From NCBI GenBank assembly GCA_951406725.2, contig OX597838.1:6820001-6884000 (forward strand): a DNA stretch of 64,000 nt, read 5' to 3'. The stretch is from Octopus vulgaris (taxonomy: Eukaryota). How positions within the stretch are numbered: position 1 is the stretch's first letter; each line of letters begins with the position of its first letter. Both the position numbers and the translations under genes were made by a program. This document shows positions 40,701-50,415 of the stretch, piece by piece. Under the pieces are notes generated by a model. The model was not told the DNA's origin. It did not search any database and saw only the letters and a program-made list of their open reading frames with translations.

Positions 40701-42840
40701 ATCTATCTATCTATCTATCTATCTATCTATCTATCTATCTATCTATCTATCTATCTATCTATCTATCTGTCTATTTATCAATCTATCTATCTATCTATCT
40801 ATGTATCTATATGTCTATCTATCTCTATGTCTATATCTATCCATCTATCTATCTATCAGTCTGTCTATCTATCTCTGTATGAAAACTTTCGCAGATATGT
40901 ATGTGTATATGTGGGTATGTGTGTGGCCATGTGTACGGGTGAATTGACGTGTGTGTGCACGTGTATGTGTGAGTTCGTGTGTGCGAGTTCGCTTTAATAT
41001 ATATATATAAATATATATATATTTATATATGTTTATACGCATATGTGTATTTTCATATATGCTTTTACATATATATATATATATATATATACATACACAC
41101 ATATATATACTTATATACATATGTATGCATTTATATATATATATATATGTATATATATATATATATATATATATATATATATATATATATATATATATAT
41201 ATATATATATATAATACATCTTTACATACACATATATTTACCGATGTCTGCATATATGTACTTTTATGCATGCATGTGTGTATGCATTCGTGCATGTTGA
41301 CATGCATACATGTATTTGTGTGCGTATGTATACTCTTGCGTGCCTGTGCGCTCGTGTGTCTGTGAACGTCTGTGTGTATGTATGTATGCAACATCGGGCA
41401 CCGAAAGTGAATGAAAGTAAAAATAAAAGAGCGGTGGAAAGTGAGAGTGAAACGGAGAGGCAGAGAGAGAGAGAGAGAGAGAGAGTGTGAGAGAGTGAGG
41501 GAGAAGTAAATGTGAGCGAAATGTGCAAATAATGTGTGTCAGTGTGAGCGTGTTAGTATGCGTGTATGTGTATGTGTGTTTGTGTGTGTGTTTATGGGGG
41601 CGAGTGTGTGTGTTTGTGGGAGTGAGTGTGTTTGTTTGTGTATATGTGTACTTGTGTGCGAGGGAGAGAGAGAGAGAGATTCTATGTGTGAGGGAGAGAG
41701 AGAGAGAGTGTTTGTGTATGTGTTTGTGTGTGTTTGTGGGGTGAGTGTGTGCGTTTGTGTATATGTGTGCTTGTGTGTGAGAGAGAGAGAGAGAGGGGGT
41801 ATGTGTGTGCATCTGTGTGTGTGTGTGTGTGTATGTGTTTGTGGGGTGAGTGTGTGTTTGTGTGTGGGGGAGAGACTGAGAGAGAGAGAGAGAGTGTGTG
41901 TGTGTGTTTCTGTGTGTGCGTGCGTGAAACTGGATGAATGTACGGTAGGACGTACCGAACGAACGAATGAAGTAAAGCTATCTATACAAATAGCGATGGG
42001 CCGAATAAGGCAGGGAGAGAGAGAAAGAGAAGGAGTGAGAGTGAAAGAGAAGGAGTGAGAGAAAGAGAGATAGGGGAGGAGGAGGATGTGAGAAAGAGAG
42101 ATTAGAGAGACGTAGAGGAAAAGAGACAGAGCGAAAAGGAGAAAAAGTGTGTGGAAGTGAAAGACGAGTGAGGGTAAAGACTGTGAGAGGAAGGAAGAGA
42201 AATAGAAAGATAGTAAGTTTGTGAGTGAGGGAGGGAATGAGGAGTTTCTGAGTGAGTGAATGAGTGAGTGAGGGAGATAGTTAGGAAAGAATGAAATGAA
42301 ATATAGAGGTGGTATTAGAGATGAAGAAAGCGATGAGGCGAGAGTGAGAGAGTGAAAGAGAGTGAAGGAGAGTGAGAGAAAGAGAGAGAGAGACATTAAG
42401 TTTAGTAAGGAGAGAGCACTATCCAGAGTGAGATAGACAGAAAGAGAAAGAGGGAGAGAGAATGAAAGAGGAAGAGAGAGAGAGAGAGAGAGAGAAATAG
42501 AAAAATAATGAAAGACGGATTGATGTATTAGAGGAAGGAAAATAAAGAAGGAGATATAGAAAGGTGAGAAAGAGATAGAGAGAGAGAGATAGAGAGAGAG
42601 AGAGAGAGATAAAGAGATAGAGAGACAGAGAAAAAAAAGAGAGAGAGAGAGAGAGTGAGAAATTACGGTGATTTCGAAAAAGAGACAAACAGAGTGTGTA
42701 GGAGATAGGAAATGCATGGAATAGAGGAAGAGAGGAATAGAGGAATAGAATTTTAGAGGAATAGAGAAGAAGTAAAAAGACGAGCAGTAGATAGAACGAC
42801 GAAAGCCAAGCTTCGCAGTAAAAGCGAATACTTTGCCATC

Positions 42841-42916
42841 ATGACTTATATACAACGCTTCAACTCCTTTGGATATCCTTACACGATCTTCATCGGATTC
42901 ATGGCAGCTATGAACG
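42841..42916 (+). other. Candidate first coding exon MTYIQRFNSFGYPYTIFIGFMAAMN (phase 1)
   Basis: gccatcATGA start context, 25 open codons, consensus G|gtaagt donor at 42917. No homolog recognised. Confidence 0.3.
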
Positions 42917-48119: not shown

Positions 48120-48332
48120 TTTTCCAGTTTCAGCTCTTGAGCTGTGGCCATGCTGGGGCACCGCCATTGTGGTGAAAGAGTACAGCAGGGATCACCACTA
48201 TCCCCTGCCGGAGCCTCGTAGAGCTTTTAGGTGTTTTCGCTCAATAAACACACACAACGCCCGGTCTGAGAATCGAAACCGCGATCCTGCGACCGCGAGT
48301 CCGCTGCCCTAACCACTAGGCCATTGCACCTC
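48120..48332 (-). mobile_element. SINE B tail fused to SINE C 5' half
   Basis: gctgtggccatgctggggcaccgcc followed by gtgaaagagtacagcaggg...gagtccgctgccctaaccactaggccattgc. Confidence 0.8.
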
Positions 48333-50415
48333 TATGTATGTATGTATTTTTCTATGCATGTTTGAGGTTGTGTGTGGACATATCGTTGTGTGTATATGGA
48401 GATATCGGTGTATGTGTGTATATGTTTATATCTACATACGTAGAAATCGGTTTATGTGTGTGTGTATGTGTATGTGTGTGTGTGTATCTGTGCGTGTGTA
48501 TGTGTGTGTGTATGTGTGTGTATGTGCGTGTGTGAGTATGTGTGTGGGCCTGTGTGTGCGCGTGTGTATATACCCGTACGAGCTTGTATGTAAGCGTGGA
48601 TGTGCCGATGTTTGTGTGTGTATGTTTATGTGTTTGTGCGTGTGTGTTTGTATGTGTGTGTATATATTGCCATGAGTTCGTATATGAGTGTGGACATATC
48701 GGAGTATGTGTGTATGTGTTCATATATACATGCGTAGAAATCAGCGTGTGTATGTGTGTGTGTATGTACTTGTACGTGCATATATACGTATATCGGTGTG
48801 TTAATATGCGCATGTGCATATACAAGCATATCGGTGATGTGTGTATAAAATGGGTGTGCTTGTATGTATGTATGTATGTATGTGGCTATCTATCTATCTA
48901 TCTATCTATCTATCTATCTATCTATCTATCTATCTATCTATCTATCTATGTTAGTAGGTAGTTAAGTAGGTAGGTAGGTTGGTAGGTAGTTACGTACGTA
49001 TGGACGTAGGTGTGTACACCTGAAACGCATACCCGGTTGGCTGGCTTTCCGGATTGCTGGTCGGCCGACGAGCCGTTCGGCAGGCTGGCTTGAAGGTGGC
49101 TACCTGACTAGCTAATGTGTAGGTTCGAGCTGTAGTAATTATCATTGTTGTTCAGCTTAAGGGGTAATCTCTCTCTGATAATGGGTTTCCCCTCGTGACA
49201 CCCCCGTTATAATTGTACCGGTATATCTGAATATTTTAGGCCTTCCATACATTATAACACTACACGTCCTATTTAAAGTTCAGAACAATGTCATTTCAAC
49301 AATTTTTCGCTGTTATTTCTAGCATGCCTTACGGCTAATTAAACGCTTCTCACTCAGGGTTGTATAGATTGTTGAGTGACCCATCAGATTTTGACGGTAA
49401 TTGTGTGCTTATGTGTGTGTGTGTGTGTGTGTTTATGAACATAGATACTTACATAGCTATCTATCTATCTATCTATCTATCTATCTATCTATCTATCTAT
49501 CTATCTATCTATCTATCCATGTATCTATCTACCTGTCTGCCTTATCTATCTATATGTATGTCTGTCTATCTGCCTATGTGTGCCTATATATCTATCTATC
49601 TATCTATCTATCTATCTATCTATCTATCTATCTATCTATCTATCTATCTATCTATCTATCTATCTATCTATCTATCTATCTATCTATCTGTATGTCTGTC
49701 TCTCTATCTATCCATCCATCCATCCCTCCGTCTATCTATTTATCGATCTACCTCTATCTATCTATAAATATAGAATGATATTGTAACCAGGAGGTGATTA
49801 TCACATTCTTTTAAAGCCGGTAATATGTGTTCTGGGATAAGTTTGGCTCTTACCGCGTACCCTTGGAATCGGAGAGACTATACTGCATACTTACGTTTGG
49901 GTCGAAAGAAAGATTGAAAGTGAGACAGAGAGAGGGATAGAGAAAAAGAGAGAGAGAGAGAGAGGGAGAGAGGGAGGCGCCTATTTATGTAGTGAGTATA
50001 CGTATGCGAGCAGGTTAAGCGGTACCAAGTTCGATTCTAGTTTAATTTTCAAAGTTTGTTATATTTCCTAAATACAGTTTTCAGGGTCCGGCGCTCTTCT
50101 TGAGTGAACGGTAGTCGTTCTGATGATGAAAGAGTTCGTTCAGTCTGCGAAGCTTGGCTTTAGAATTCATTCCATCACAGTCCTGTATAAAACAACAGGC
50201 CCCGGCTAAATATCCCACTAAAATGTTATGGGTAACTTTATACAGACGCACAATCGTATATGCATATGTGTATATGTACGGTTTTGTGTAAGGGGTAGGA
50301 ATGAGTTCGGATGCAAACACACATACACATACAAGCACATATATTTTCTGTTTGGTGGTTTTTGCCTGTTCCACACGGGACAACTTGTTAACTATAATAA
50401 CATACACACAGATAT

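Follow-up and report, generated by a model that had tools for sequence, protein, structure and literature searches.

The start of a Ly6/uPAR gene in a 64,000-nt stretch of Octopus vulgaris DNA (contig OX597838.1, positions 6,820,001 to 6,884,000 of the forward strand; hereafter the window, numbered from its first letter) carries two nested inverted complementarities. The outer one pairs the 5′ leader of the gene with a segment of the first intron, and the inner one lies in the loop between these two arms. An earlier note on this DNA had proposed that eleven short helices, separated by microsatellite-expanded loops, form one selected pre-mRNA scaffold controlling editing or splicing. In our analysis the 11-helix scaffold reduces to two modules, outer and inner, in an identified gene. 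What is new, as read from matches to annotated proteins, is that the outer left arm lies at exon 1 of a Ly6/uPAR gene on the + strand, whose intron is 328 kb long. We tentatively favour, with a little less than even confidence, an explanation in which the two nested modules pair in the nascent RNA and the outer one acts like an editing-complementary sequence (ECS), presenting the leader and start codon to ADAR.

Host gene and outer duplex

The features concerned are the following.

42841–42916, + strand: coding part of exon 1, assigned to a Ly6/uPAR quiver-like gene; 25-codon predicted signal peptide, phase-1 donor at 42917
42802–42842, + strand: outer duplex left arm (stem 2); 5′ leader up to and including the first two bases, A and U, of the start codon, with a perfect 17-bp core at 42802–42818
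42742–42758, + strand: stem 1 left arm; partner at 50158–50173; covers the UAG (42754–42756) that ends an in-frame upstream open reading frame (ORF) starting at 42712
50123–50173, + strand: outer duplex right arm, candidate ECS; located in the intron 7.2 kb past the donor and pairing with the left arms of stems 2 and 1

Scanning 1.06 Mb for exons turned up a cysteine-rich one, 328 kb downstream of the exon in the window, with a match to a UPAR/Ly6 protein of octopus. Positions 42841–42915 encode 25 residues that are identical (25/25) to the N-terminus of two members of the cluster of this protein, the matching annotated proteins being O. bimaculoides XP_014779287.1 and O. vulgaris CAI9740548.1. 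The first intron measures 328,229 nt, with exon 2 at contig C25:7191146. Since exon 1 and the downstream exon sit in annotated octopus proteins, the + strand is the transcribed one, and in this respect the earlier assumption of a + strand pre-mRNA was borne out. XP_014779287.1 has a signal peptide, a ten-cysteine LU domain and a hydrophobic C-terminus, that is, all the hallmarks of Ly6/uPAR proteins; judging from these matches, the gene with exon 1 in the window is a Ly6/uPAR gene, quiver-like. The Pfam QVR model scored this protein below its curated cut-off (19.6 versus 27.3 bits, E 0.002), and a search of the PDB with it gave no match. Homology searches with the 53-codon frame containing exon 1 were blank, which must be counted as false negatives because exon 1 later matched annotated octopus proteins. 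A gene-desert reading, based on the lack of any cellular family in the 150 ORFs (of 527) and the 70 exon candidates (of 90) that were tested, was likewise overturned by the identification of the Ly6 exons. The 8 kb starting at exon 1 lie at the 98.6th percentile for G+C and the 99.9th for CpG, which fits a gene start. The minus-strand frame spanning the outer right arm had no homolog, and inferring the strand by base or microsatellite skew failed in calibration on 14 loci of minus-strand genes.

Upstream of the main start codon, the in-frame AUG at 42712 is followed by the UAG at 42754–42756, after which 28 codons are open into the main AUG. Contig C25 holds three Ly6/uPAR paralogs whose first introns are very long, at 5.95–5.97 Mb (minus strand), 7.19 Mb and 7.75–7.80 Mb (plus strand), and further ones were seen on C5 and C6. 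Candidate paralog first exons on C25 are located at 7610059 (+) and at 6196264 or 5985051 (−). Homeobox genes occur on the same contig at 4.84 and 8.13 Mb.

Because 42841–42916 is coding exon 1, the outer left arm corresponds to the 5′ leader up to the AUG, and the right arm is intronic; the leader probably reaches 42802 in the transcript. The outer duplex is made up of an exonic and an intronic arm on one pre-mRNA strand, with complementarity above chance. Stem 2 (42802–42842/50123–50161) comprises 34 pairs, 32 Watson–Crick and 2 G:U, with pair probabilities of 1.0 in the 17-bp core and 0.87 for A42841:U50124. The whole outer duplex, including stem 1, has a net ddG of −30.5 kcal, reached by 0 of 200 in each of three controls. 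Stem 1 would exist in the RNA only with a transcription start upstream of it, and as an extension by itself it is not above random flanks (2305/3000). The 17-mer occurs exactly twice in the 2.8-Gb genome and falls on the ~200-nt leader/exon of the host gene. Among the 193 perfect inverted matches (at least 13 nt, 1–10 kb apart) found in 911 kb of unique sequence within 1.78 Mb, its duplex has the highest stability. Leader segment 42780–42916 and the right arm were each matched as well by none of 292 foreign 12-kb blocks, and the best partner of the right arm is the leader of its own gene. When 2.2 kb of islands were folded jointly, the + strand structure retained only stems 1–2 (p 0.92–0.97), and the minus strand gave equal energy.

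The arms might also be viewed as terminal inverted repeats left by an old DNA transposon, given that their inverted similarity extends over ~55 nt and that they lie 7.4 kb apart. However, even with up to 3 mismatches allowed each arm occurs only once in the 2.8-Gb genome, as found also by DNA search, and the left arm coincides with a host gene's leader, leaving this origin with a negligible probability. Beside the right arm, at 50031–50062, a 32-nt match to another locus with loose ends on both sides was seen in runs X19 and X20; it is possibly an old repeat trace.

Inner duplex and the remaining stems

The other elements of the chain are located as follows.

45936–46125, + strand: inner duplex left arm, stems 8–11; an alternative register, 46021–46080, replaces stems 8–9
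48997–49113, + strand: inner duplex right arm; a local hairpin at 49040–49090 forms a junction
43963–44460, + strand: left arms of stems 3–6, with partners at 49857–50098; present, not above chance
45830–45855 with 49122–49136, + strand: stem 7; present, not separable from chance
44666–45410, strand unassigned: decayed short interspersed element (SINE) fragments in the duplex loop

As to the presence of the stems and arrays, the earlier note proved accurate. All 11 pairs exist and are nested, the 17-mer of stem 2 is perfect, and stem 10 has 18 of 20 positions paired with two A:C mismatches. The microsatellite arrays are also in place, with (TAGA)n at 46341–46748 and (CTAT)n at 48886–48949, and the stem islands do lie outside the local repeat families: none matched any of 23 repeat profiles derived from 664 kb, the adjoining island 44666–44960 being decayed SINE. 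An extra 16-bp helix (44787–44802/49831–49846) falls in decayed SINE as well.

The comparison with controls divides the chain, in that stems 1–2 and the compound duplex around stems 8–11 exceed chance, whereas stems 3–7 do not. Counting helices of at least 8 bp and −13 kcal or lower, 18 nested stems were observed, against 15.2±1.8 in 100 shuffles (range 12–20) and 11–22 in re-wired controls, that is, either half of the locus paired with foreign G+C-rich islands. When stem 2 was removed, the chain score was reached by 29/150 and 22/150 re-wired controls, and chains of uninterrupted helices within stems 7–11 gave z values of 0.1–0.5. Whole-island duplex energies and permissive chain alignment were too noisy for judgement. 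Stems 3–7 are probably chance fill. The notion that all 11 helices belong to one selected 7.5-kb scaffold tolerating repeat insertion can point to the existence and nesting of every stem, and to a chain that, without stems 1–2, remains mildly above shuffles on the + strand (z 1.8–2.2). The nested count lies, however, inside the shuffle and re-wired ranges, and stems 3–6 are missing from the + strand joint fold. We regard such a scaffold as very improbable; of the original proposal, the + strand pre-mRNA at the start of a 328-kb Ly6/uPAR intron was retained and the selected 11-helix structure was not.

The inner module was obtained at 46021–46123/48997–49110 by interrupted-helix scoring. None of 300 block shuffles was as good for this island pair, and one of 300 was when all pairs were considered. 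The right arm scored 62.5 with its own upstream sequence, a value equalled by 0 of 292 foreign 12-kb blocks, and among the background locus-strands only 1 of 440 scored as high as the inner module (rank 2 of 441). Each of the two inner islands occurs once in the 2.8-Gb genome. Cofolding of the two islands returned stems 8–11 at p 0.98–1.0 around the local hairpin. This register differs from that of the interrupted-helix scoring, so that two registers compete. On the minus strand the inner module is much weaker (ddG −14.6 versus −23.6 on +; score 32 versus 57), and since it requires G:U pairs it depends on the + strand.

Outside the duplexes, an Rfam scan of 40000–54000 gave 130 weak matches, all below the gathering score and on microsatellites, and a tRNA scan with ARAGORN found nothing real. 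Other structures noticed in passing include, in window-equivalent coordinates, a local hairpin in unique sequence at 76366–76455, its perfect 17-bp stem closing a 5-nt loop (z −6.2), and a decayed inverted duplication of ~360 nt, with copies 3 kb apart, from −136930 to −133559, which is the strongest long-range match in 664 kb. Fragments of a GIY-YIG-type (Penelope-like) element were seen in both orientations at L101:1354–3196.

Editing, splicing or neutral complementarity

In the explanation we favour, both arms are transcribed within ~7.4 kb, the next acceptor lying 120–328 kb away. The arms would be complete long before intron removal, so the duplexes should have a long time to form and likely do form. 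Octopus ADARs would next act on adenosines within the outer helix or next to it, the candidates being A42822 (opposite C50141), A42830 (in an out-of-frame AUA) and A42841 (in the AUG). Such edits would persist in the mRNA leader and would tune translation start, while the inner module would likely shorten the loop and surround cryptic splice signals. Squid data list edited sites in 5′ untranslated regions and introns (PMC9068888), and in reporters the editing of AUG and AUA alters initiation (PMC13542072), as far as the available portions of these two sources go. A bolder version would have UAG-to-UIG editing at 42754–42756 fuse the upstream ORF to the main frame and so yield an isoform extended at its N-terminus, the short one being damped by edits to the main AUG, all directed by an intronic element 7.3 kb away in what would be a Ly6 channel-modulator gene. 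The A of the UAG is paired with a probability of only ~0.3, and we consider this version quite improbable.

The splice signals inside the duplex loops point to another possible function.

45980–45985, + strand: donor-like GTAAGT; predicted unpaired probability 0.00–0.04 in the local hairpin alone, 0.50–0.85 with long-range pairing
46940–46961, + strand: strong acceptor-like site, exon side 46962; first site scoring at least 8 after exon 1, in the inner duplex loop

The pairs may serve as a splicing scaffold with no editing role, looping out the first 7 kb, hiding the acceptor at 46962 and tuning the donor at 45980 or an 80-nt poison exon (45900–45979) while the true donor awaits its far acceptor. 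The acceptor-like site does lie in the inner loop, donor accessibility varies with pairing, and the candidate exons shift the frame; in humans, conserved complementary regions are described as suppressing enclosed exons and covering cryptic sites (PMC8052449, in the part available). On the other hand, similar sites are about as common antisense, since the intron holds 13 acceptor-like sites scoring at least 8 on the + strand and 8 on the minus strand, with 24 and 21 donors, respectively, and the acceptor of the 45900 exon scores −0.3. We judge a pure splicing role unlikely. Inclusion of either candidate exon alone, 45900–45979 (80 nt) or 46962–46983 (22 nt), shifts the frame, and with both included the frame stays open into exon 2.

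Several further splice-like elements were noted along the intron. A weaker recursive-like site, AG|GTATGT, occurs at 43630, 713 nt past the donor, and the acceptor at 46962 falls within a local hairpin, 46958–47009 (z −4.2 in a minus-strand fold). In sense orientation (+) at C25:6982822, 120 kb into the 328-kb intron, a pyrimidine tract followed by CAG|GTAAGT forms a nearly perfect ratchet point consensus for recursive splicing, which has the best combined score of 7 recursive-splice sites on both strands of 1.78 Mb. A second such consensus, at C25:7718538, is on the sense strand of a candidate paralog intron. A search of the paper collection available found none combining recursive splicing and octopus.

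Whatever the function considered, the ECS-like reading has to be weighed against a neutral origin. In that case the outer duplex would be a decayed ~55-nt inverted duplication, or a lucky match in a G+C-rich gene start, and the inner one a promiscuous G/U-rich stretch; pairing and light editing could still occur, unselected. A number of observations weigh on this side. Its G+C content places the locus in the top 1.4%, where stable matches by chance are more likely. When the purine-rich leader is included, 7 of 292 foreign blocks match equally, the same number as for the left inner island alone, and 29 of the 440 background locus-strands reach the outer alignment score. By net energy, at least 16 of the 204 background pairs surpass either module, nested background pairs being common, and within the 1.78 Mb the runner-up 17-mer has nearly equal energy, narrowly behind the outer core, with no extension. 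The outer module folds with equal energy on both strands, the inner one is missing from the + strand optimum of the 2.2-kb joint fold, and its two registers compete. A leader–intron duplex was seen in none of three candidate paralog first exons on the same contig, picked by heuristics, in a test whose control had 1 of 8 orientations beating 100/100 shuffles (a false positive).

The mismatches had been taken as evidence for RNA-level selection, being mostly G:U on the + strand, and equal numbers of G:U and A:C as a sign of neutral ancient duplication. In a strand-neutral alignment the ratio is 4:4 for the outer module, as expected from a neutral history, and 20:7 for the inner one; the latter does not clearly exceed the 60–65% G:U that composition alone predicts (p 0.1–0.2), and the supposed G:U excess is not established.

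Related samples add a few sequence differences, taken from assembled contigs that drop rare variants, the depth being below 5 in both covering contigs. Run X19 covers 42739–42918 and differs there at two positions, 42771 (A>G) and 42816 (C>A), both changes being synonymous in the frame leading from the upstream ORF to the main AUG, and run X2, guessed to be RNA, covers 50098–50252 with one, 50154 T>G. Both differences that touch a stem (42816 and 50154), i.e. two of the three, fall in the 17-bp core, for which the chance is 0.03 (0.14 for the wider duplex). Each would cost ~5–6 kcal if uncompensated, the partner bases not being covered in the same run. No A>G was present over the right arm in the single, low-depth X2 contig, and the left arm had no contig from the runs guessed to be RNA. 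Gaps in the coverage by X1, X17 and X20 on the left arm, and by X1, X19 (core) and X20 on the right, carry no weight either way. Metagenome scans gave 0 matches in one case and 10 chance matches without extension in another. Sparse as they are, the variant data argue against conservation of the core.

Set against this is the fact that the best match of the region falls on a leader and ends at its AUG, and that an independent second module, favouring the transcribed strand, is nested inside; this combination is hard to put down to chance. Nevertheless, the variant data, the equal G:U and A:C counts of the outer module and the wealth of background pairs make a neutral origin nearly as likely as the ECS-like reading, and we treat it as a substantial possibility that falls short of the probable. 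Should it be true, the lesson would be methodological, namely that unique islands rich in G+C readily yield nested series of short stems.

Comparison with known systems

The dependence of cephalopod editing on far intronic partners is little described, and a search of the paper collection available found none dealing with an intronic ECS in octopus or with the editing of octopus Ly6 genes. Glutamate-receptor transcripts are examples of ADAR substrates with intronic ECSs. By its layout, the octopus duplex may work like an ECS and like the human pairs of conserved complementary regions (PCCRs), the likeness being one of layout only.

In ADAR substrates with an ECS, such as Drosophila Syt1 (PMC5705066), an exonic arm of the pre-mRNA pairs with an arm in an intron further downstream, as proposed here; the imperfect helix of ~34 bp with an A:C mismatch and the neural-type gene family are also alike. 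The octopus arm differs in that it is a 5′ leader with a start codon and not a recoding site, in its distance of 7.3 kb, and in being known from sequence, whereas an ECS is defined by editing and conservation. Human PCCRs, in the available part of their description (PMC8052449), are long-range (<10 kb), have energies below −15 kcal, are nested and lie beside cryptic splice sites, and the octopus modules are alike in these respects. PCCRs, however, are defined inside conserved regions, while the octopus modules are known from complementarity in one genome, and even with conservation the PCCR false discovery rate is given there as 10% to >50%.

Two further systems are closer in gene family or in organism. 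In Drosophila quiver/sleepless (qvr), A-to-I sites are reported to cluster within a stem (bioRxiv 10.64898/2026.05.15.725286), and qvr is a Ly6 gene, like the one concerned here; unlike the octopus leader–intron duplex, the qvr sites recode the protein within one hairpin, and the octopus gene is likened to qvr here by its Ly6 family. In coleoid mRNA editing clusters (bioRxiv 10.1101/2021.06.16.448723, in the portion at hand), RNA structure links distant adenosines in octopus, as we propose for the leader. Those clusters span 200–400 nt in transcripts, with introns unmentioned in that portion, whereas the link proposed here would reach over 7.3 kb and depend on an intron.

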